Shown one piece after another: positions 1-10,770 of a stretch of 21,434 bases of DNA; the first letter of the stretch is position 1; each line of letters starts with the position of its first letter. Source of the DNA: a virus. Lineage: Duplodnaviria; Heunggongvirae; Uroviricota; Caudoviricetes. The notes below the pieces were generated by a model. It did no database searches, was not told the DNA's origin, and saw only the letters and a program-made list of their open reading frames with translations. The position numbers were made by a program, and so were the translations under genes. The DNA lies in the IMG/VR virus record IMGVR_UViG_2695420514_000017, positions 1-21,434 of that record; one strand, 5' to 3'.

Positions 1-1944
1 ATGAGTAACGGAAATATTAAATATCGACCAGAGATTGACGGACTACGATCAATTGCAGTGTTATCAGTAATATTATTCCATGCAGGGATAACACAATTTT
101 CTGGCGGATTTATTGGCGTTGATGTTTTCTTTGTAATAAGTGGTTATCTTATAACCACTATACTTGTAAATGAGCAAGAAAAAGGATTCATAAGCATTTC
201 TAATTTTTACAGGAGAAGGGCCAAAAGAATAATTCCTGCACTTTTCTTGGTGATTGCGGTAACCACTCCAGCAGCGTATTTATATTTAGCACCAAAAGAA
301 CTTTCCTCATATATTTCTAGTATTTTATATACAGCCACATTCTCATCAAATTTTCTTTTTTGGCAGGAGTCTGGGTATTGGGATACTGCAACAGCGCTAA
401 AACCACTTATTCATACATGGAGTCTTGCGGTAGAAGAGCAATTTTATCTTATATTCCCATTCATTGTAATGATGTTTTGGAGATTCGGCGCAATACTGTT
501 TTCTTTGTTTCTTGCTATTCTTATGGCTGGTAGCCTCTGGCTTTCTCAAAACTCACTGCTTGATAACCCAATGTTTTCTTTCTACATGCTTCCTGCTAGA
601 GCATGGGAGCTATTTGCTGGTTCAATTATAGCTGTGCTGCTAAAGCGGAGTAACATATACAACAGTTCAGGAATATTCAACCAAGTGGCATCAATTGCTG
701 GTCTTTTGCTGATCGTGTTCCCTGTTTTTTATTATACAGGAAAAACAAAATTTCCAGGTATTTCAGCGATACCGCCAGTTCTTGGTGCGGGTCTAATTAT
801 AATCACATCAAACTCAAATACCATAGTTGGGCGCATTTTAGGATCCAAGCCTTTTGTTGCGGTTGGTCTAATAAGTTATAGCGCGTATTTATGGCATCAG
901 CCAGTACTTGCATTTCTAAAGATAATAACTTTAGGACGGATGGATGTTGTTGATTCTCTTTTAGCTGTTGGATTGATACTTATACTATCAACCATTACTT
1001 ATCATTTAGTTGAAAAGCCAGTGAGATTTGGTCATACATTTTTTGGCAAGTGGCCACTTTTAACTACAGGAATAGCCTCATGCTTAATCATCGTTGCCTC
1101 TTTTACAGCATCTAAAGGTAATGGATTCCCAGATAGAATCAACTCTGTATATAGCGCGAAAGCTCAGGCAGTTGAATTAAAGAATACTCAATCATTTGTT
1201 TCAGATACGGAACCAGGTGAAAATAAACCGATCATTCTCATCATTGGTGACTCCTACGTCAGAAACTGGTCTATAGGGCTAAGAGAAAAAATCAACACAT
1301 CTAAATACCGAGTTGTATCTTTGACTTATCGTGGATGTGATGTCGATGTAAAATCAGATTCAGTTTTTGCAAAGCCTATTGAAAGCGCCTATAAAGAAAA
1401 CTGCAAATACTTAACAGATATGTTGAACAATAAAAATATAACTTCTCATATTGATAAGGTATTCCTTACATCTCACAGGCCATTTGCATATATTGCAAAC
1501 AATTTCAGATTCAATCTATTGAAGTATATTTCTTCGCACTCAAATTCAAAACTATATATATTTGGAAATTATTTTCAATATCACCCTATGAAAACGCAGA
1601 CATGCCTAAGCTCTATGTTTATTGCAAAGAGAGATGCAAGAGTTTGCATAGATAGTTCAGAGTACAGTGGTAATGAAGGTAAGATCACCGATAAATTAGG
1701 ATTATATCGCCCAATGGACACCTTAGGTTTACCCTATACGTATATAGATATTAAAAGCATGATTTGTGATAAAAAATCTAAATCGTGCCCATATGAGTAC
1801 AATGGGGTTCCATTTATGATTGATACAAACCATTTAACTGCTACGTTCGCCAAATTCCTTATTAGAACTATCACAGATAAGAATGCCAGATACTTTTCAA
1901 AAATTGGTCTCTCAGATGTTTTTTCATTTGATAAACCTAATTGA
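1..1944 (+). CDS. O-antigen/LPS O-acetyltransferase: acyltransferase-3 (AT3) membrane domain fused to a C-terminal SGNH-type domain (OafA/Oac-like lysogenic-conversion protein)
   Basis: 647 aa ORF. N-terminus has the RPEIDGLRSIAV...FHAG motif typical of AT3 acyltransferases, followed by many hydrophobic segments over roughly the first 370 aa. The C-terminal soluble part carries GDSY (IILIIGDSYVRNW) and a D-x-x-H motif (MIDTNHL) as in SGNH hydrolases. Markedly AT-rich relative to the structural genes. ATG at window position 1, so the start cannot be confirmed against upstream sequence. Confidence 0.85.
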   Translation: MSNGNIKYRPEIDGLRSIAVLSVILFHAGITQFSGGFIGVDVFFVISGYLITTILVNEQEKGFISISNFYRRRAKRIIPALFLVIAVTTPAAYLYLAPKELSSYISSILYTATFSSNFLFWQESGYWDTATALKPLIHTWSLAVEEQFYLIFPFIVMMFWRFGAILFSLFLAILMAGSLWLSQNSLLDNPMFSFYMLPARAWELFAGSIIAVLLKRSNIYNSSGIFNQVASIAGLLLIVFPVFYYTGKTKFPGISAIPPVLGAGLIIITSNSNTIVGRILGSKPFVAVGLISYSAYLWHQPVLAFLKIITLGRMDVVDSLLAVGLILILSTITYHLVEKPVRFGHTFFGKWPLLTTGIASCLIIVASFTASKGNGFPDRINSVYSAKAQAVELKNTQSFVSDTEPGENKPIILIIGDSYVRNWSIGLREKINTSKYRVVSLTYRGCDVDVKSDSVFAKPIESAYKENCKYLTDMLNNKNITSHIDKVFLTSHRPFAYIANNFRFNLLKYISSHSNSKLYIFGNYFQYHPMKTQTCLSSMFIAKRDARVCIDSSEYSGNEGKITDKLGLYRPMDTLGLPYTYIDIKSMICDKKSKSCPYEYNGVPFMIDTNHLTATFAKFLIRTITDKNARYFSKIGLSDVFSFDKPN

Positions 1945-2000: not shown

Positions 2001-4241
2001 TTAATCGGCAAGACCAAAGTTTCCGCGTTTGATGACGCTTGTAGCAAACCCTAGTATGGCTGTTGTTACTGTTGAAGCATCAAAATGATTTCCGATAATA
2101 ATGGCGTTTTCTGTGTTGTTTCCACTAAACCCTCTGACAGCATTGTATATGGTATTACCATTAAACAACTTACTCCCTCCTAGTGTCGCGATATCAACGG
2201 CAGAGCCTTGAAGTCTTATAGTTGTCGATGTTCCTGATAATACACAGTTGCTTATTTTAAAACTCCTAAAGTCCTTGTTAGGCTTCTCCTGCTTTATTGC
2301 ATATGACAATGCAGTTGCCGCAGTTGTTCCAGTGTCCTGGATAGTTACTCCGTCAATGACTATCTCATCAAAATCTAGTATCCTTGCTCCTATTTTTGTT
2401 GTCCCAGAATTTAGGTTGCTTCCCTTTCTGTAGTTGATATCCTTGATAATCATCCTGTTTGTTGCGTACGTGACAGATTTTGCTTGAGAATAAATTAGAT
2501 TAGGTGCATCTCCAGTAAGGTAACCAGAGATGGAAAAGTCACCAACAGAACTTTGCACATAGAATACAAAGTCATATAGGCCTGATACATTAAATAATGT
2601 AATTCCGTTAATTCTGAAGTCCTGCGTCATTCCTATGCGCATTAGGGAGTCTGTAGTTCTGACTGTTGTATTTGGTATTCTGGCAGTCCCGTAACAGTCT
2701 ATATTATTAATTGAAAGGCCGACGACACCATTGGTTCCATCCAGAGAACGAGAGTGGATTGCTTCGCCGTAATTTCCATCTACTATACAATTTGATAAAA
2801 CTATATCGTTTATAGGGACACCAATCGCTCCAAAATAAAATCCACTGCATATCCCAGTTGGTGCTGTTTGACCAGTAGGAAGATTATCTATTGGAGGATT
2901 GTTCTTCGATGATGTGCACCTGTCGAAGTAAAATCCTCGTTGAACAAATCCTGAAGGTACAGATGTGTAATCGTGCCCATGTAAATTAAAACCAAAACCA
3001 CAGTTTGCTATAGCCTTGCAGTTCCTGAATGTGAGTCCAGATACCGGAACATCTGTAACTTTAAAACCACTGCAACTTTCAGTTGTCATCGTTCCTGGGC
3101 TAGGCATGAATGGTATCCCATTCTCTTCAGCGATGCATGATTCTAATAGAAGGTTGTCAATACCAAAATCCTCTGCGACACCACTTGTAACAGATGCGAT
3201 CCTAAATCCATCGTTATTTCTATATGAATAACAGTTTATTACTGTTGAGTCTTTAGCCCCTGTAATAAACAGCGGGTAAACCATTCCAAGACCTTTCATC
3301 CCTTCACAATAGAATCCAGATACCTGCCTGGTGGTACCAACCCTTATCCCTATAGCAATTTTAGGCTCCCTCTCTCCTTGGCTTCTAGACTCACCATCAA
3401 TAGTGAACTCTCCAAGTAATGACACGTTATCCTCATTAATTATGAAGTATTCGTGAGTATCAGCAGTTCCATCTGATTTGAATATGGCGTTATCGAACCT
3501 GAGTGACTGACCTTTCTTTAAAGAATGAAGACCCGTTGAAAGATATGTTCCGCTAGGAAAAAAAATTGAAGCATCATCTCCAGATGAGTTGATTAGGTTA
3601 TTAATTTCATTAGTGCTTGAGACGACACCGTGTGGATTGACTCCGAACCACAGAGCATTTATTTCTCCTTCATACAGCCTCTTCCAGCGTCTATTCAAGG
3701 AATCAACTAAAATTGTCCCATCGTTGTCAGCACTAACTGCATCTGAATCATCACGATAAAAGATGCCGTCAGCACCATCAAATGGCGATAATCGCCCGAA
3801 ACAATATATGTGGTCAAGTTGACCATTATACTCCCTTATTTGATTATATAATGCTCCACCTACATACCCAAAGCCATAGAAATCTCCTACTAATGTTCTA
3901 AACTGGTCTGGATTATACTTCAGAACATTCGGAAAATAGAACTGCTGCGCACCGTACGCATCATAAACAGCCATAGAGTGGCCTTGCACAGTTACGAACT
4001 TGGCAATCTGTCCGTTATATACCGGATATCCGGCAGCGTTAATGATGATTGGTTGCGAAACAGGAACGTGAGAACCGTCTTCGTTCTCCACATAAACCTG
4101 AATCTGGTTTTCAGGATTTACAGGGTCAGTGTCAATTTTACCGATATAAATTTTGCCATTGGCTACGGCTTTAAAAGAACGAGCCATAGTGAAGAGTTGC
4201 GAAGGCATGCTTACCACAACATTTGCGGTGATATCTGTCAT
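2001..4241 (-). CDS. Tailspike protein: P22 gp9-like N-terminal head-binding domain plus a divergent receptor-binding/depolymerase body
   Basis: 746 aa. The first ~115 aa ([34 protein letters not shown]...[13 protein letters not shown]...NVLKYNPDQ) closely match the P22/Sf6 tailspike head-binding domain as I recall it. The remainder is G/N/S/T-rich, typical of a beta-helix, and does not resemble the P22 endorhamnosidase body from memory. Minus-strand GGAG lies 9 nt upstream of the ATG. Confidence 0.9.
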
Positions 4242-4341: not shown

Positions 4342-5220
4342 TCAGTAGTTATGTACTGAAGGAGGTAATTCTTTATTCTTAAGTCTCATCCATGCGGAAA
4401 GATTCGTTGGTCCGTCTGGCTCATTGATATCAACATCTCGTGTGTGATTGATTAAAACGTCCCTCGCCATTCCGATAACATACGAGAACTCATGACCGTA
4501 GTCGTAGCATCTGCCGGAATAGTTCGATTGAATTTGTTTTAATGCCGGATACAGTTCGCGGAATAATGCCTGTGAGCGATTGGCATAATCCCATAACCAT
4601 ACAAGGCTGTTTGCTTCTTTTGCAGAAAGCTCGTTGACTTTCCTCTCTTGTTTGCCGATAAACTCGCCTTCAAGCACTACCCTGTGGATGTACTCTACGG
4701 CCAGCGGGATTTGTTCAATTGAAAGTTCATCAATGCTGTCAATACCAAAACGCTGATGAACCATATTGTATGCATCGTCATAGCGAAGTCCTTTCTTTCC
4801 TACCAGCATGTTTACTGCATCGCGTAGCGGTGTTCTTTCCTCAACAGTGGTTTTCTTGCCTTTCACATACTCTCCATGTTTGCGAATCGAAGGCAGAACT
4901 TCTGCTGTTACCCACTTGCGGAATTTGTGCGGGACTGAACCTTTATTGACAGCATCGCGGCAGCGCAGAACCAATGTATACATACCTGATTCGCTAACAA
5001 TGCTTAGATTCTGCTCACCACCAAGGGTGTAACTTAAAGTTACTCCCTTTTCATCGTCATCAAGTGCAGTAAGCGCCTTGCGTGAGTTAGTCAAAGATAA
5101 AGCATCACAAACATCTTTAGCTACAAACCACGGCTCACCGCACTTGTTGATGACGCGGATTTCACTGTCGCCGAATTTGAAGATGGTGAAATCGTTTTGT
5201 GCCTTTGCTATACTTTTCAT
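4342..5220 (-). CDS. ant: Antirepressor Ant (Bro-N domain protein)
   Basis: 292 aa. N-terminal Bro-N-like motif ([28 protein letters not shown]...RLDDDEKG...[17 protein letters not shown]) resembles P22 Ant as recalled. Position directly downstream of arc matches immI. Confidence 0.85.
5186..5214 (+). promoter_or_regulatory. Candidate Psar: extended -10 promoter inside the 5' end of ant, reading antisense
   Basis: TGcTATACT at 5206-5214 fits the extended -10 pattern (TGnTATAAT). Weak -35-like GTGAAA at 5186-5191 with a 17 bp spacer. Predicted start near 5221-5223, just past the ant start codon on the opposite strand. Confidence 0.4.
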
Positions 5221-5292
5221 GTCAATATTTCCTAATCCGATTTGTTGATAACGAAGCCCTGACTGTTACCGCAGTTGGGGCTTCAACTTTTT
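5221..5292 (+). ncRNA. sar: Candidate sar-like antisense RNA complementary to the ant ribosome-binding region
   Basis: Plus-strand hairpin at 5253-5284 (GAAGCCC...GGGCTTC outer stem with an inner GACTG/CAGTT extension) followed by aac-TTTTT (5288-5292) is an intrinsic terminator on the strand opposite arc-ant. With the extended -10 at 5206-5214 this predicts a roughly 70 nt RNA covering the complement of the ant RBS and start codon, as described for P22 sar (68-69 nt). Confidence 0.45.
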
Positions 5293-5456
5293 GCTAGATT
5301 ACCTTTAGAACTATCCCGCCTTAAACTATCCACCAACCGCATTACCATCTCGGTATTTATTGAGCGGCCATTTTCTTTCGCTGACTTCTCGATTGCTAAC
5401 TTAACCTCTAATGGGATGCGCAAAGGGTACTTTGGTGCGTCTGACTTGACTATCAT
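5283..5456 (-). CDS. arc: Arc repressor (ribbon-helix-helix)
   Basis: 57 aa from the ATG at 5454-5456 with a GGAGG RBS 4 nt upstream on the minus strand. PKYPLRIPLEVKLAIEKSAKENGRSINTEMVMRLV aligns with P22 Arc (FNLRWPREVLDLVRKVAEENGRSVNSEIYQRV) as recalled. The ORF-track start at 5471 is a TTG extension. Confidence 0.85.
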   Translation of the reverse strand: MIVKSDAPKYPLRIPLEVKLAIEKSAKENGRSINTEMVMRLVDSLRRDSSKGNLAKS

Positions 5457-5474
5457 ATTACCTCCAATCAATTT

Positions 5475-5544: not shown

Positions 5545-5781
5545 ATGTCACGCGAAGAGCCGCAAATAAATATCAGGATTTCCAAAGAGTTAAAGGCAAA
5601 GGTTAAAGCCAGGGCGCAACATAACAAGCGTTCCATGAATGCTGAAATAATACAGATTATCGAAGATGCTGTTTGTGGTAGATCGCTTAATAGCAATGAA
5701 TTTGCTCAGAAAGAGGCTGACAAATTCAGGGATGCGCTGCTTGAAACACTGAAAACCATGTATGGTAAGGATGCAAAATGA
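5545..5781 (+). CDS. mnt: Mnt repressor (ribbon-helix-helix maintenance repressor)
   Basis: 78 aa. INIRISKELKAKVKARAQHNKRSMNAEIIQIIEDAV aligns with P22 Mnt (FNFRMPMEVREKLKFRAEANGRSMNSELLQIVQDAL) as recalled. GGAGG RBS 4 nt before the ATG. Divergent from arc. Confidence 0.85.
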   Translation: MSREEPQINIRISKELKAKVKARAQHNKRSMNAEIIQIIEDAVCGRSLNSNEFAQKEADKFRDALLETLKTMYGKDAK

Positions 5782-5987
5782 ATAAAAAACAGTTTATTAA
5801 GTCAAAAACGTCAAGCAAGGAAGAGCTAGAGAAAGAGCTAAACTCCCTGAAATACGCTCTGTGTCTGGTTTACTCAAGACTGCCAATGGAAGATAAAAAC
5901 GCTATTTACAATGAAATGATTAGCAGCCTTGATTTTAACGATAGAGACCTTGCATCCCACCTCAACAGCTTCCGCGTCCCTGAGTAA
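5778..5987 (+). CDS. Hypothetical 69 aa protein translationally coupled to mnt
   Basis: The ATG at 5778-5780 overlaps the mnt stop (ATGA). Hydrophilic, predicted helical (KEELEKELNSLKYAL). No family recognised. Confidence 0.55.
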   Translation: MNKKQFIKSKTSSKEELEKELNSLKYALCLVYSRLPMEDKNAIYNEMISSLDFNDRDLASHLNSFRVPE

Positions 5988-6147
5988 TTCTGTTGCGGAT
6001 TTGCTTCTTGCGGTGGTTTAGGCTGGAGAGCTTGGCTTCTGCTTCCGATATTTGCGCATCTAGATCTTTAAGCTCAAGATCTGAAAGTCGCTGGTCAAGC
6101 AGGGTTTGGTTTAACTCAATGTTGTTCAGGCGTTCTTCTATGGTCAT
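5962..6147 (-). CDS. Hypothetical small coiled-coil protein (61 aa from the second ATG)
   Basis: MTIEERLNNIELNQTLLDQRLSDLELKDLDAQISEAEAKL shows heptad-like periodicity. AGGA lies about 8 nt upstream of the ATG at 6145-6147 on the minus strand. Convergent with, and overlapping by 26 bp, the 3' end of the preceding plus ORF, so it is uncertain. Confidence 0.4.
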   Translation of the reverse strand: MTIEERLNNIELNQTLLDQRLSDLELKDLDAQISEAEAKLSSLNHRKKQIRNRITQGRGSC

Positions 6148-6178
6148 AACTTTCATCCTATAACTATTTGGAATCAAA

Positions 6179-6361
6179 ATGAAAAATATATTAATTGGTT
6201 TCGTTTTTGGTGCAGCCTGCGCCGCCAGCATTAGCGTCATCGCCGCCCAGGTTGTTGGTGGTAACTCATATCTAATGGGCTATGACGTCATGATAAATGG
6301 AGAGGTTGTTTGCTCAGATCCTTATGTATGGACCTCGACAAAAGAAATAGAATGTGACTAA
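6179..6361 (+). CDS. Hypothetical small membrane-anchored or secreted peptide (60 aa) with two Cys in the C-terminal part
   Basis: Hydrophobic N-terminus [26 protein letters not shown] (signal peptide or single TM helix), then a 35 aa tail with two Cys (…[20 protein letters not shown]). Weak RBS (GGAA) but a clear intrinsic terminator immediately after the stop. Confidence 0.5.
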
Positions 6362-6437: not shown

Positions 6438-6471
6438 ATCGCCCAATAACGGGTGTATGTTGAGGTATATC

Positions 6472-6651
6472 ATGGCGAAAAAACCAGGTGAAAACACAGG
6501 AAAAAACGGCGGAATATACCAAGAAGTTGGCCCGCGCGGCGGTAAGAAAGACAATTTTGCCACCGTCAAGGACAACGAAAGGCTTCCGCCAACAACAAAG
6601 CCAGGTCATGGCTGGGTATTAGATAAGCGAACTCCAGACAGCAAAAAGTAA
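6472..6651 (+). CDS. YjzC-like small protein (59 aa)
   Basis: MAKKPGENTGKNGGIYQEVGPRGGKKDNFATVKDNERLPPTTKPGHGWV follows the KPG...G.Y.E.G..G......V.....LP.T...G.W pattern I associate with the YjzC-like family. GAGG RBS 6 nt before the ATG at 6472. An upstream in-frame ATG at 6457 has a poorer RBS. Confidence 0.65.
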   Translation: MAKKPGENTGKNGGIYQEVGPRGGKKDNFATVKDNERLPPTTKPGHGWVLDKRTPDSKK

Positions 6652-6657
6652 TAATCA

Positions 6658-6680
6658 AGCCGGGTCACTCCGGCTTTTTG
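6658..6680 (+). terminator. Rho-independent terminator after the YjzC-like gene
   Basis: AGCCGG-gtcact-CCGGCT hairpin (6658-6675) followed by TTTT-G (6676-6680), 7 bp after the stop. The stop codon of the convergent minus-strand HExxH ORF lies inside the hairpin. Confidence 0.65.
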
Positions 6681-7030
6681 ATATGTCGCTCGCAGAACTC
6701 AACAAGCCTGCTCATTAAGTAGCAGTAAGTCTCGTTGGCTCTTCCTGGTTCAACATCAACACCGACCCTTGAGCAGATATCGAATGCCATGTGAGCGCAC
6801 TCATGGGCAATAGTAGATAGTTTGCCATTGAACACACCTATCACATGCAAAACACCATTCTCGCTGCTCATTGTATGAGACGCTCCGTTGGCATCCGAGT
6901 CCTGCACGTCCACGCCAAGTTTTTGATGCAGGCGTTGCCATTCTGGAAAGTCTCTGCAAAACACAATCGTACCGCTCTCAAAGAGCGGTACGAGCATCTT
7001 TGGTACGTTTCCAATGTTAACTTTTTTCAT
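6665..7030 (-). CDS. Hypothetical 121 aa protein with an HExxH motif (possible small zinc metallopeptidase-like or Zn-binding protein)
   Basis: From the ATG at 7028-7030 (AGGA 4 nt upstream on the minus strand): MKKVNIGNVPK...STIAHECAHMAFDICSRVGVDVEPGRANETYCYLMSRLVEF. HECAH with a downstream Glu and nearby Cys suggests metal binding. Sequence looks protein-like, unlike the overlapping N-terminal extension of the plus ORF. The ORF-track start at 7069 is a TTG. Confidence 0.5.
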   Translation of the reverse strand: MKKVNIGNVPKMLVPLFESGTIVFCRDFPEWQRLHQKLGVDVQDSDANGASHTMSSENGVLHVIGVFNGKLSTIAHECAHMAFDICSRVGVDVEPGRANETYCYLMSRLVEFCERHIKKPE

Positions 7031-7060
7031 GGTATCCTGCTCAAAACTAAGGAGGTTGGT

Positions 7061-7450
7061 GTGAAGCAATTTCTTGCTGCTATGTTCTTATTCATATCTT
7101 TTGGGGCTACAGCAGAGTGCTGGGTCGTTGGAGATATGCGCGGAATAAGCTATTCAGAACGCAATAATTTCCATCCGGTAGAAGATGGTTTTAGTGGAAC
7201 ATTCACCATTAAGACAAGCGGTGAAGATGCCAGCATCACATATTCTGGTACAGATGCGGGCGGCATGGCTTACAAAGCATTGTCTAAAAACTCCATCATA
7301 GGAATCGGCGCGAATGGCGAAACTCAACGCGTTATCGACTCATGGGTAATACATCCTACTGGAACAGTTTTAATGTCAAAAACCATTTCCGGTTATGGAA
7401 ATATGGATTCAACCAAAGCTTTTGTTGGAAAAGTAAAAAGAAAATGTTAG
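7061..7450 (+). CDS. Hypothetical secreted (periplasmic) protein, about 129 aa precursor, predicted Sec signal peptide
   Basis: Strong AAGGAGG RBS (7049-7055) 5 nt before an in-frame GTG at 7061. N-terminus MKQFLAAMFLFISFGATA|ECWVV has an n/h/c signal-peptide layout with an A-x-A cleavage site. Mature part is beta-rich (TFTIKTSGEDASITYSGTDAGG...) with Cys at both ends. The 72-codon upstream extension in the ORF track is antisense to the HExxH ORF and not credible. Confidence 0.6.
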   Translation: MKQFLAAMFLFISFGATAECWVVGDMRGISYSERNNFHPVEDGFSGTFTIKTSGEDASITYSGTDAGGMAYKALSKNSIIGIGANGETQRVIDSWVIHPTGTVLMSKTISGYGNMDSTKAFVGKVKRKC

Positions 7451-7474: not shown

Positions 7475-9385
7475 TTACTGCTGTGTTGCCTCAGTAGCAA
7501 ACAGCGGCCTGACGGCATTTGCAGCGTTACTTAACGCTCTTTCATAGGCTGGTGTTCCAGCTTTAGTGTTTGCCAGACGTAAGAGCGCATTCCTTGCTGC
7601 TTTGGACTCGTACAAGCGCATGATTGCACCGAAACCAGCCTCAAGTCCCAGTGATACACCAAGGGTTGCAGTTGCGCCAATCGTTCTAATCCTGTTAGCT
7701 TGCGATTGTCCTGTCTGTGTTACTACATTTGCGGCGTCCGACCTTGCTGTTTGCTGTAGAACTTCATGAAGAGCATCAAGCTCTTTCATGTGTCTCCCAC
7801 TGAATATAGTGTTATAGATCTGACCGTCAGATTGCGACTTCAACTTATTTAACTCGGTAAGAAATTTTGTTGGCGAGTCTCCTGCTTTTTCTGCAATCTT
7901 GCTGATATAAGCAGCACGCATAGCGTTCTTTCCATCTTCACTAAGAGCAGGCCATATCCTCTTAATATCTGATGGTTTTCTGCTGAATACAACGCTGTTT
8001 ATTAGCTCTGGAGTAAACTCTTTTTTAGCTTTGTTGAGATTATTCGCAATCCTTTTATTGAGAACTTTATTGAAGACGTTGGAGTAGTCAGAGTTTGCTT
8101 TGACGTATCTGGCGGCCTCTCCAGCCCCCAAATACCGCGCTGCGTTATTCCTCAAATCTGCCCCCATTGCCCTCTCCACGGCATCAGTTGCGGCTTTCGC
8201 GCTATTAGGAAAAACCATGGCATCTCCCTGAATACTTTCCCTCAAGGCTGACCGCAACTCTCTCAATAGACCAAAATCTATATCTGGTTTAGCAAGTTCT
8301 TCTCGCAAATCGGATAACCCGCGAATCAAATCCTTATTTGCCACTTTCCCAAGCCTGTTAGCTCTGGTAAGTACGTTGTCGATAACCTTAATAGATTTTG
8401 ATGTGTCAACAGGTGTGTCTCCCATTTTGGTTGTAATGTCTTCAATAACGCTTCCGGCCGAATCCTTCCTTGACTTCAGAGAACCATACAGATCGTCAAC
8501 AACAACTGATGGGCTATATTCACCATATTTCTCAAGCTGTTTTTTAACTAGCTGACTTCTTTTTGCATATTGCTCAGCTCGCTTTGAGCCTGTTCCCAGC
8601 AAAGCCCCCTCAGCATCCTGAGTAAGACCACGAGTGAAAGCATTTTTCGGCGGGATTACATCAGATGTCATTGGTGTCACGCCCATCGATTCTGATGTGG
8701 CAATTTTCTTCGCCACTTCTGGTGCAATATCACCTTTAAAGGCAGTTATTCCACGCTCAAGCCCTTTTGCAACAGTATTAACAGCACCACCTGTTAGCAT
8801 GCCAACACCTATATCTGTTGCCAGTTTTCCCGCATCATTTTTCTCACTGTTTGCGGCGAGCGATCCGACTGCGTTTTCTGCCAGAAGACGGGCTGCGCCT
8901 TGAGTAATTCGACCAGCAAGTGTTGGCGCCTGAGTTGAAGCGCCGCCAACGCCAACAGTAGCCAGGTAAGGCAATGCCTCCGCAAACACCCTACCTTCTG
9001 TCGTTTGTGGAGTCAGAGCACCTTGCTGAAGTCCAAACGCCTGCTCTAATCCCTGAGTTGTTACTCGTGGCGCTGGTTGATATGTTCCATCGCCAATACC
9101 GAGTTTACCGCCAGCCCATGCCGCCGCGCTTGTTACAGCATCGGCAACTGATGCTGGTATATTTGCCACATTTACACCAGCCTGCACCAGTCCGCGACCA
9201 GTTTCTTTTACTGCTTCGCCGAGGTCAGACATAAATCCATCTTGCTGTTCTACAGGCTGCTTTTGGTTTTGAGTTGGTTGATTACTGGAGGACAGAATCT
9301 GAGCGATGCGACGTGCTCCCTCAGTATCACCAGCAGCATCAGCATTCCTTAACGCCGTCATCAATTGTTCACGACTATAAGCCAT
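7475..9385 (-). CDS. Ejection (E) protein, P22 gp16 homolog
   Basis: 636 aa. Position, size and N-terminus ([29 protein letters not shown]) are consistent with P22 gp16. Its ATG overlaps the gp20 stop (TAATG). Confidence 0.9.
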   Translation of the reverse strand: MAYSREQLMTALRNADAAGDTEGARRIAQILSSSNQPTQNQKQPVEQQDGFMSDLGEAVKETGRGLVQAGVNVANIPASVADAVTSAAAWAGGKLGIGDGTYQPAPRVTTQGLEQAFGLQQGALTPQTTEGRVFAEALPYLATVGVGGASTQAPTLAGRITQGAARLLAENAVGSLAANSEKNDAGKLATDIGVGMLTGGAVNTVAKGLERGITAFKGDIAPEVAKKIATSESMGVTPMTSDVIPPKNAFTRGLTQDAEGALLGTGSKRAEQYAKRSQLVKKQLEKYGEYSPSVVVDDLYGSLKSRKDSAGSVIEDITTKMGDTPVDTSKSIKVIDNVLTRANRLGKVANKDLIRGLSDLREELAKPDIDFGLLRELRSALRESIQGDAMVFPNSAKAATDAVERAMGADLRNNAARYLGAGEAARYVKANSDYSNVFNKVLNKRIANNLNKAKKEFTPELINSVVFSRKPSDIKRIWPALSEDGKNAMRAAYISKIAEKAGDSPTKFLTELNKLKSQSDGQIYNTIFSGRHMKELDALHEVLQQTARSDAANVVTQTGQSQANRIRTIGATATLGVSLGLEAGFGAIMRLYESKAARNALLRLANTKAGTPAYERALSNAANAVRPLFATEATQQ

Positions 9386-10770
9386 TACTGCCCTCCGAGA
9401 TATTTGCTAATTAATTCGTCATCGGACAATTGCTGTTGAGGTTGGCTATCGCCATAACTTGAGGAAAGAAAACGTTTTGCCGCAGAGTTCAATGATTCAC
9501 CCTTCTTAACATCCATCCCCATGATGTTTCGGTTGCGATCAGATTGTCCTGGGCTGCCGTTTGCACTCATCCACTCTGACCTAAACTCGTTGAACTTCGC
9601 GTTATTACTTTCCATTTTTGCCATACCCCTTAACCATCGAGCCATGACCATTGGATTATCCGTTTCGCTTGGAATACCTTTCCTTGCAAACTCAATATCC
9701 TTATCTGATGCAGGGCCTGGAGGGAGAAGCTTGGTTGCCTGCGCATTGGCTAGTTGGTTGAATCTAATCCGCATATCTCGGAGGTAGTTATCTTGCCCCG
9801 TAAGCTTAGAGAACATATTTTCAGCGTTACCGAACAAACCAGGAGTTGGCTTCTCCTTCTCCAGCGTGTCAGCGAGCGTTGTCATTGAATCGGCAGCATT
9901 ACGACTAGCTGCCGCATCACCTGCTGATTTTTCTATAGCCTTTTCCATGTTCACTGATAATTTTGGCGCAGCATTAATAAGTTCCTCGGCCTTTTTTTGT
10001 GCCTGTTGTACTTCAAAACCGAATTTCTGCTTATCAAGTGCCAGTCTTTCTGCTGCAAGTCCGTGTCCGGTCATTGCAGACTGATAGGAAAGGTTTTGCC
10101 CCCTAATAGCCCTCGCATTCGTCATGTCATTATTGCGAATGGTTTCGTTAATTCTTTGCTGCTCCTGCTGGCGACCAACCATCTTATCCTGAACAGCAAA
10201 CGCCTTTTCTGGTCCAAGCGCACCGAGAGACATAGTAGTCAGCATGTGTGATAGCTGCTCTGGATTCTGAATACCTGTCTGAATCATCCAGTCAGCATTA
10301 GCGCCAACGCGATTTAACCTGTCCTTGTTGTCAGTAATGAATTTACTGTAGGCTTCCGGTCCCTGAGAAAGAGCGACGTTAGCCCTCATGGCTAAATCGC
10401 CCATATCGTTGCGTTGCTGCTCATTAAGACCGGAAAATGCCTGTTGTGCCTGTGCAACAAACGCTGGATTTTCCTGGGCAAACTTAAATAGTCCCGATGG
10501 ATCACCAGAAGCCCATGCATCAGCATGAACCTTATTGAACGCATTAATCGCTTTCTGTTGCTGTTCCTGCTTATAAATATCAGCAACTCCAGCCAGACCA
10601 CGTAACGCGGTCAGACCAACGTTATTTGCACTTGAGCGAGCCAGTTCATTGTTTTCGCGGATCAGACCAAGCGTTGCGTTAATGTCGCTTGCCTTTGGCG
10701 CATTCTCGTTTTGCGCACCAATGCCAGCCAGAAAACCACCAGAATTAATACCCTGTTGCCACGTAGCCAT
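9385..10770 (-). CDS. Ejection (E) protein, P22 gp20 homolog
   Basis: 461 aa, helical and Q/A-rich, in the syntenic position between the gp7 and gp16 homologs. Confidence 0.9.

Follow-up and report, generated by a model that had tools for sequence, protein, structure and literature searches.

A Hex-family gene in the sieA position of a P22-like element encodes a candidate periplasmic superinfection exclusion protein

Positions 1 to 21,434 of IMG/VR virus record IMGVR_UViG_2695420514_000017 (Caudoviricetes) were analysed, and this whole stretch of 21,434 nucleotides is referred to here as the window. Its genes are those of the late and immI regions of a prophage or phage that is P22-like (Lederbergvirus-type), and the late genes are encoded on the minus strand. 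The gene under study, here called the Hex-like gene, is a plus-strand open reading frame (ORF) of 129 amino acids (aa) at 7061-7450 that runs from a GTG start to a TAG stop codon (7448-7450). A Shine-Dalgarno sequence, AAGGAGG (7049-7055), lies five bases 5' of the GTG. The first 18 codons (7061-7114) encode a predicted Sec signal peptide of the signal peptidase I type, MKQFLAAMFLFISFGATA, with a predicted cut between A18 and E19, and the rest (7115-7447) encodes a mature protein of 111 aa (11.9 kDa, pI 8.0) that is predicted to form an up-and-down beta barrel. The stop codon lies 24 bases from that of a convergent homologue of P22 gene 16, which encodes an ejection (DNA transfer) protein of 636 aa (7475-9385, minus strand; phrog_770 "DNA transfer protein", E-value: 1.6e-211) with 52% identity to P22 gp16 over 575 columns (BLASTP). 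Beyond it lies a homologue of the ejection protein gene 20 (9385-10770, minus strand; Pfam PF16928 Inj_translocase, E-value: 6e-109). An earlier note, made from the letters of the window, had described the ribosome-binding site, the GTG start, the signal peptide and the adjoining ejection protein genes, and these descriptions are borne out by the comparisons reported here.

The ORF at 7061-7450 is a real gene under purifying selection. When the mature part is compared with two moderately diverged alleles, the ratio of nonsynonymous to synonymous substitutions (dN/dS) is 0.09 and 0.15, and a chance ORF was rejected based on these values and on the conservation of the gene. Its GC content (41.5%, against approximately 47% for the flanking genes and 50.6% for the late region) is low, as expected for an imported accessory cassette. 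Initiation at GTG 7061 is favoured for three reasons. First, the alternative ATG at 7082 has no Shine-Dalgarno site ahead of it. Second, an ATG is found at the base equivalent to 7061 in other alleles and homologues, including those of E. coli C (MKLIIAM...) and locus L007 (MKRLIVG...) and the hex gene of phage 434. Third, the start codon of P22 sieA is at the equivalent base, behind an identical ribosome-binding site. The ATG 7082 start, which is the choice of the Prokaryotic Genome Annotation Pipeline (PGAP), was rejected on the first of these grounds and because the signal peptide would lose its n-region. This NCBI pipeline starts the gene at least 21 bases late in RefSeq E. coli genomes, with products of 122 aa (104 aa in E. 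coli C). In the four RefSeq loci that were opened (L003:4483-4851, L009:3522-3890, L010:3527-3841 and L011:3522-3890), the signal peptide is partly or wholly removed in this way; these late start calls hide secretion in the four loci and probably also in many of the 147 E. coli genomes found to carry the gene.

The signal peptide and the export of the protein were called using sequence rules and family conservation. The n-region is MKQ (charge +1), the best 8-residue Kyte-Doolittle mean of the h-region is 2.9, and Ala residues are present at -3 and -1 (ATA|EC), consistent with cleavage between A18 and E19. In five diverged relatives, the signal sequences differ while the layout is unchanged and is followed by an invariant Cys-Trp. 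A HMMER family search of 1.84 billion representatives returned 125 clusters at E ≤ 1e-3, approximately 110 of them full length, and nearly all of the full-length clusters have a signal peptide, an x-C-[WYF] motif and a Cys among the last six residues. An alignment of 66 sequences shows C20 without exception and W95, G123 and C129 at a conservation of 90% or more. The two cysteines (codons 7118-7120 and 7445-7447, plus strand) stand at position +2 of the mature protein and at its C-terminus, much as in the earlier description of a mature protein of about 110 aa with a Cys near each end. A lipoprotein was rejected for the window protein because the residue before the Cys is Glu, which leaves no lipobox. 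A few distant family members have A-G-C at this site and might be lipoproteins. No transmembrane-like segment was found in the mature part of the window protein (best 19-residue hydropathy mean 0.77).

The AlphaFold2 model of the protein (predicted local distance difference test score (pLDDT) 86.4; predicted template modelling score (pTM) 0.76) has nine beta strands of 14, 4, 6, 6, 6, 8, 9, 11 and 14 residues and no helix of four or more residues, which agrees with the beta-rich protein anticipated earlier. The cysteines sit on the first (residues 19-32) and last (residues 115-128) strands, and a Cys20-Cys129 disulfide that closes the barrel is plausible and would probably tie these two strands. 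The conserved cysteines suggest DsbA-dependent folding. Outer-membrane barrels typically end in an aromatic signal for the beta-barrel assembly machinery (BAM), and conserved cysteines are unusual in them. In the model, both faces of the terminal strands are charged mid-strand, and the C-terminus reads ...KVKRKC. Given these charges, the non-aromatic C-terminus and the length of only 4-9 residues in six of the nine strands, the protein looks soluble and not membrane-embedded. The structure prediction and fold search proposed in the earlier note produced an all-beta barrel but no functional lead: Foldseek against the PDB and viral models returned weak, generic barrel matches (TM-scores ≤ 0.5), and a search of the family profile against PDB sequences found no solved structure related by sequence. 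The barrels in question (Cap15, the NHBA C-domain, avidins, calycins, the PliC-like PhiA and small outer-membrane proteins) are generic and share 3-14% identity with the window protein, and no single functional family stands out among them. Similarity to OmpX, Ail, Lom and PagP extends to general fold class only. The terminal Cys pair and the sequence motifs described below are, in contrast to these generic eight-stranded barrels, specific to the Hex family.

The earlier note recognised no family for the protein; this was incorrect. Residues 14-129 match PHROG 2651 with an E-value of 3.3e-60, and Hex of phage 434 matches the same family (E-value: 1.4e-58). The window protein and 434 Hex are 27% identical over their full length (BLASTP, pairwise E-value: 2e-12), the relation is also recovered by tblastn against a phage collection (E-value: 4e-5), and the two proteins share the motifs ECW[IV]V, TW.I and STK[AS]FVG.V..C. 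Based on these sequence matches, the window protein is a member of the Hex family (PHROG 2651). The Pfam, NCBIfam and PADLOC scans of the protein gave nothing usable; in Pfam, no family was found for it at E ≤ 1, nor for the 66 aligned members at E ≤ 0.01. A translated search of phage genomes identified relatives with 96-97% identity in phages Emek and ST-35; the Emek copy is orf129, for which the depositors note similarity to Sf6 gene 38. Full-length relatives with approximately 27% identity are carried by 434, lambda imm434, HK446, HK633, Sf6, Sf101, Huey and Chlobot. Sf6 gp38 is identical to 434 Hex at 132 of 134 positions, so a P22-like phage (Sf6) carries Hex itself. Other named relatives are from Serratia, Pantoea, Pectobacterium and Lelliottia and are all annotated as "hypothetical".

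The window protein resembles 434 Hex and Sf6 gp38 in its size (129 aa compared to 134 aa), in keeping with the family's build as one domain of 120-140 aa, in its signal peptide of 17-18 residues and in the x-C-W at the mature N-terminus, and all three are carried by temperate enterobacterial phages. Their genomic locations differ. In both 434 and Sf6, hex is directly downstream of the cI repressor gene, and in the HK446, Sf101, Huey and lambda imm434 records, a repressor annotation is found under the same match. The 434 gene (OL657227; L004:2429-2905) is annotated as encoding a "repressor protection protein". Its cI and hex genes are on the PRM transcript, which is made in lysogens (PMC3564112). 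In 434, the hex ATG and the cI stop codon overlap (ATGA); this arrangement suggests that their translation is coupled and favours a Hex of 134 aa as the product. In contrast, the window gene is found in the sieA slot, between hkcC and gene 16, with a PsieA-like region upstream. The location after cI is a trait of the 434/Sf6/HK446 subgroup, whereas relatives with 25-66% identity share the sieA-slot position. The Hex family itself is already known, if barely characterised (our literature search for the family found nothing beyond the 2013 Hex paper, PMC3564112, and a 2024 review of exclusion does not mention Hex); what is new is the sieA-slot location of this member.

This location is equivalent to that of sieA in P22. 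Of the 464 bases at window positions 6600-7063, 457 are the same in P22, and the match extends through the sieA start codon, after which similarity ends. In the P22-pbi record, the equivalent stretch contains the last part of orf59a, the mnt terminator, PsieA as annotated there and the start codon of sieA. P22 sieA converges on gene 16, as the window gene does. In a three-way alignment, the identity runs through GGTGTG and ends at the second codon. The sieA coding sequence has been exchanged, with the control region, ribosome-binding site and start codon kept. No Hex-like gene is present in the sieA slot of P22. When P22 SieA was used as a tblastn query, nothing was found in the window or in eight carrier loci (SieA types B and C were not used as queries), and the SieA motif FxRYPxEAxxFNK is absent from the window protein.

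Upstream of the Hex-like gene, positions 6976-7060 (plus strand) are homologous to the 85-bp fragment of P22 that contains the putative PsieA (83 of 85 bases match), and the PsieA annotation of P22-pbi maps to 7000-7030. The sieA gene with only these 85 bp upstream (putative PsieA) was sufficient for exclusion when present once in the chromosome (Leavitt et al. 2024, PMC10883804). Homology therewith predicts promoter activity for 6976-7060. A simple sigma-70 scan of the region found no consensus promoter, and TGGTATCCT (7030-7038) is offered only as a suggestion for an extended -10 element. The module AAAACTAAGGAGGTT[GA]G[TC]GTG, which includes the Shine-Dalgarno sequence, is common to P22 sieA and all five close alleles that were aligned, and sequences 5' of it vary between prophages. 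In E. coli C and APEC O2-211, the gene sits after same-strand genes downstream of mnt, so a different prophage promoter may be used there. Whether hex follows cI or the gene occupies the sieA slot, both sites are expected to be transcribed in a lysogen. The PsieA-homologous stretch lies within the coding sequence of the divergent neighbour, an hkcC-like gene (6665-7030, minus strand; 121 aa; phrog_1365, E-value: 1.4e-39) whose start codon is 31 bases from that of the Hex-like gene. Its product is 100% identical to the corresponding region of P22, for which the P22-pbi record has no such annotation. Lantibiotic matches of this protein (E-values: 0.025-0.14) were dismissed as chance. In an O111:H8 prophage, another divergent gene starts at the same ATG as the hkcC-like gene.

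The Hex-like gene was found in 147 of 5426 complete E. coli genomes at ≥95% nucleotide identity, always on the chromosome. The contexts that were opened (CUPS04, O111:H8, E. coli C, APEC O2-211 and phage Emek) are all P22-like, with the gene converging on gene 16. A relative with 66% identity has the same arrangement beside a gp16 of 800 aa, and one with 25% identity is found in another P22-like element, where it is flanked by the tailspike gene and a gene for a gp16 homologue of 753 aa. Linkage to a single type of gp16 was rejected: the partner proteins are 99%, approximately 59%, 40% and 34% identical to the window gp16, indicating that the cassette is tied to the slot and not to one type of ejection protein. 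Beside a 24% relative in locus L014, genes of 755 and 611 aa could not be identified as encoding ejection proteins. The family is also found outside obvious phage settings, beside a transposase gene on a Pectobacterium chromosome, on a Lelliottia IncFII plasmid and, in a further case, beside a resolvase gene. In Candidatus Symbiopectobacterium, a 57% identical copy (L012:6001-6390) has ATT at the start position, and P22-like genes are absent within 6 kb of it; in this symbiont genome, the gene may be decaying. Some E. coli alleles (hits H103-H108; L010) combine a mature part of approximately 95% nucleotide identity with an unrelated signal peptide, MKLIIAMAFLVFSFSVSA. Homology to these alleles sets in at base 50 of the gene; a second mosaic joint, besides the one that the comparison with P22 reveals at the start codon, therefore marks the signal/mature boundary.

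P22 is a model for the conduit by which short-tailed phages pass DNA across the Gram-negative envelope, and SieA is, to our knowledge, the only exclusion protein so far shown to act on that conduit. Since the window gene has the slot, the control region and the start codon of sieA, its most likely job is the one that sieA performs in P22. The two genes also agree in orientation and ribosome-binding site, and each would supply a prophage envelope product encoded beside the ejection genes. They are not related in sequence. SieA resides in the inner membrane as a protein of 162-164 aa for which three transmembrane helices are predicted, without an obvious signal sequence, and it has the FxRYPxEAxxFNK motif (PMC10883804), whereas the window protein is all-beta, has a predicted cleavable signal peptide and lacks a mature transmembrane segment. 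It is an analogue of SieA by position and not a member of the SieA family. Small phage proteins that stop DNA entry at the envelope once adsorption has taken place, namely Imm and Sp of T4 and Sim of P1, provide mechanistic precedents only. P1 Sim is a processed, exported, periplasmic protein.

Based on these comparisons, we consider the chances about even that the protein functions in the exclusion of P22-like phages. In PMC3564112, which cites Susskind and Botstein (1980), P22 is said to be excluded by Salmonella that carries a lambda-imm434 prophage but not when this prophage is hex-, and the name Hex is explained as heterologous exclusion. The earlier note had proposed a superinfection exclusion factor, and the sieA slot and the Hex homology now lend that proposal comparative support of two kinds, homology and position; the activity itself keeps the status of a candidate. 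Under this proposal, the Hex-like protein would be made from the prophage behind the sieA control region and exported by Sec, and signal peptidase I would cut after Ala18. In the periplasm, it would form a small, soluble barrel of eight to nine strands, with the Cys20-Cys129 disulfide probably tying the first strand to the last. Protection of the lysogen against superinfection by P22-like phages would then be exerted in the periplasm and not, as with SieA, at the inner membrane. The most tentative part is the target. The protein might bind one of the ejection proteins (gp7, gp20 or gp16) or the tail needle during DNA delivery, so that the trans-envelope conduit of gp7, gp20 and gp16 fails and the DNA is kept out; we regard binding of this kind as possible, and well short of probable. 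The idea has two sources: P22 mutants that escape SieA have their changes in gp16 and gp20, and no compartment other than the periplasm lets a soluble, secreted protein meet incoming virion proteins. If exclusion is periplasmic, escape mutants should map to a conduit component that is exposed in the periplasm.

Several points weigh against a role in exclusion. Accessory genes of many kinds are housed between gene 16 and the tailspike gene, which makes position alone weak evidence. PADLOC contains no match, the fold searches led to generic barrels with no hint of function, and the signal peptide was judged by rules and conservation rather than by SignalP. The non-phage settings of some relatives leave room for a more general periplasmic function of the fold, which they may reflect. 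Finally, the only biochemical study of the family places Hex in the cytoplasm, where it is reported to act against RecA-stimulated repressor cleavage; this study is considered below.

Exclusion could also be achieved through a host factor, if the protein occupied or altered a periplasmic or inner-membrane component that the conduit needs. All of the evidence for exclusion given above serves this alternative equally, and a conserved host target would more easily explain why the gp16 and gp20 partners of the gene differ so widely. A host factor, YajC, has been raised as an alternative for SieA as well (Leavitt et al., PMC10883804). No result obtained here suggests a host partner, and the SieA escape mutations in gp16 and gp20 point to phage targets for the other occupant of the slot. 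We therefore consider a host target unlikely.

A periplasmic inhibitor or immunity protein, such as an MliC/PliC-like lysozyme inhibitor or an immunity protein against a type VI secretion system (T6SS) effector or bacteriocin, would give the host a conversion benefit instead of excluding phages. In the E. coli C prophage, a gene annotated as encoding a Rap1a/Tai family immunity protein (L010:3101-3436) lies directly upstream of the Hex-like gene on the same strand, and the occurrence of the family outside phages also fits a role of this kind. Against it, neither the window protein nor the 66 family members match MliC, PliC or any other Pfam family, the one characterised homologue has a phage-exclusion phenotype, and the gene recurs beside gene 16 across deep divergence. 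This function is about as improbable as a host target. One variant would still count as exclusion, namely inhibition of a cell wall hydrolase carried by the virion. Residues 136-356 of the window gp16 match a PHROG labelled "transglycosylase" (phrog_29864, E-value: 2.7e-40), and relatives match a "lytic tail fiber protein". Pfam identified no domain in the window gp16, and the "transglycosylase" label may be a case of annotation propagation. If gp16 does cut the cell wall, this would matter for the inhibitor model.

A third alternative is the function published for 434 Hex, which would make the protein a stabiliser of lysogeny that blocks RecA-stimulated repressor autocleavage in the cytoplasm and so lowers spontaneous induction. 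The window protein is only a candidate for exclusion, whereas 434 Hex has both the reported P22-exclusion phenotype and a claimed RecA/repressor activity. In support of the latter, hex- lambda-imm434 lysogens release approximately 30-fold more phage, an effect seen only in recA+ cells (Shkilnyj et al. 2013, PMC3564112); a fragment, sHex, complements this approximately 7-fold, and purified sHex inhibits the RecA-stimulated cleavage of the 434 and P22 repressors in vitro (PMC3564112). The same study found that overproduction of full-length Hex stopped culture growth, and it defines sHex as E43-N103 of a 158-aa ORF, with guanidine hydrochloride (GuHCl) among the purification steps (Figure 5 legend; PMC3564112). 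Its text never mentions a signal sequence, a membrane or the periplasm (PMC3564112).

In our comparison, E43 of sHex is the Glu directly after the predicted signal peptidase site (ANS|ECW) of the 134-aa Hex, and N103 falls mid-barrel, so that the fragment covers approximately half of the fold. The growth arrest, the borders of sHex and the use of GuHCl fit a secreted protein better. A signal peptide and a Cys pair kept in approximately 110 representatives would separate the protein from RecA and the repressor, the window gene occupies the sieA slot without linkage to a repressor gene, and relatives occur on a plasmid and beside a transposase gene. Judged from the conserved export signal and Cys pair, RecA-stimulated repressor cleavage is unlikely to be the primary target of Hex, and a stabilising role of the window protein is less probable again than a host target or an inhibitor function. 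Least probable of all, and by a wide distance from the exclusion proposal, is an outer-membrane eight-stranded barrel of the Lom/Ail/OmpX/PagP kind that confers virulence or serum resistance or masks a receptor, as the mature protein has only 111 aa, six of its nine strands are too short to span the membrane, charges occur mid-strand on both faces of the terminal strands, the KVKRKC terminus is not aromatic, the conserved cysteines would be unusual and no Pfam outer-membrane family is matched.

Returning to periplasmic exclusion, a broader and speculative extension is that the Hex family as a whole comprises widespread, unrecognised, soluble periplasmic beta-barrel factors that exclude P22-like podoviruses by intercepting their ejection-protein conduit or needle between the two membranes, a mechanism distinct from that of the inner-membrane SieA, with members swapped between two slots (after cI, or in place of sieA), and that the RecA role of 434 Hex is an artefact of a signal-less half barrel; the 1980 hex phenotype would then gain a molecular explanation. 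We hold this extension to be possible and, like the binding of a conduit protein, doubtful. If exclusion by the window protein were correct, a second, unrelated and soluble protein in the sieA slot would offer a means of probing conduit assembly from the periplasm. sieA was found in only 22 of the 66 sequenced P22-like phages that were searched (PMC10883804), and alternative occupants of the slot would explain this figure. If it does act in exclusion, this common gene could also alter how susceptible clinical and livestock strains are to phages. The conserved export signal and Cys pair, which were overlooked in PMC3564112, call for a re-examination of Hex function.

Elsewhere in the window, Ant (4342-5220), Arc (5283-5471) and Mnt (5545-5781) are encoded to the left of gene 16, and the tailspike gene (2001-4241), further left, encodes the P22 head-binding domain. 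The interval between mnt and the Hex-like gene contains accessory cassettes that differ between prophages, such as the Rap1a/Tai family gene of E. coli C noted above. In phage Emek, genes encoding a DUF4065 protein and orf161 (L002:1290-2163) replace hkcC and are possibly a toxin-antitoxin-like pair. The immI region thus behaves like a small defence/accessory hotspot.

Just beyond the tailspike gene, positions 1-1944 (plus strand) encode a protein of 647 aa in which an AT3 acyltransferase domain is fused to an SGNH domain (Pfam E-values: 1e-30 and 1.5e-19, respectively). The GC content of this gene is 35.6%, compared to 46.5% for the whole window, and from its domains it looks like an O-antigen acetyltransferase conversion gene. 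If so, it would provide a second, receptor-modifying route of exclusion in the same element. Three small ORFs of the immI region, at 5778-5987 (plus strand), 5962-6240 (minus strand) and 6457-6651 (plus strand), encode 69, 92 and 64 aa without a Pfam match; the last of these corresponds by position to P22 orf59a.

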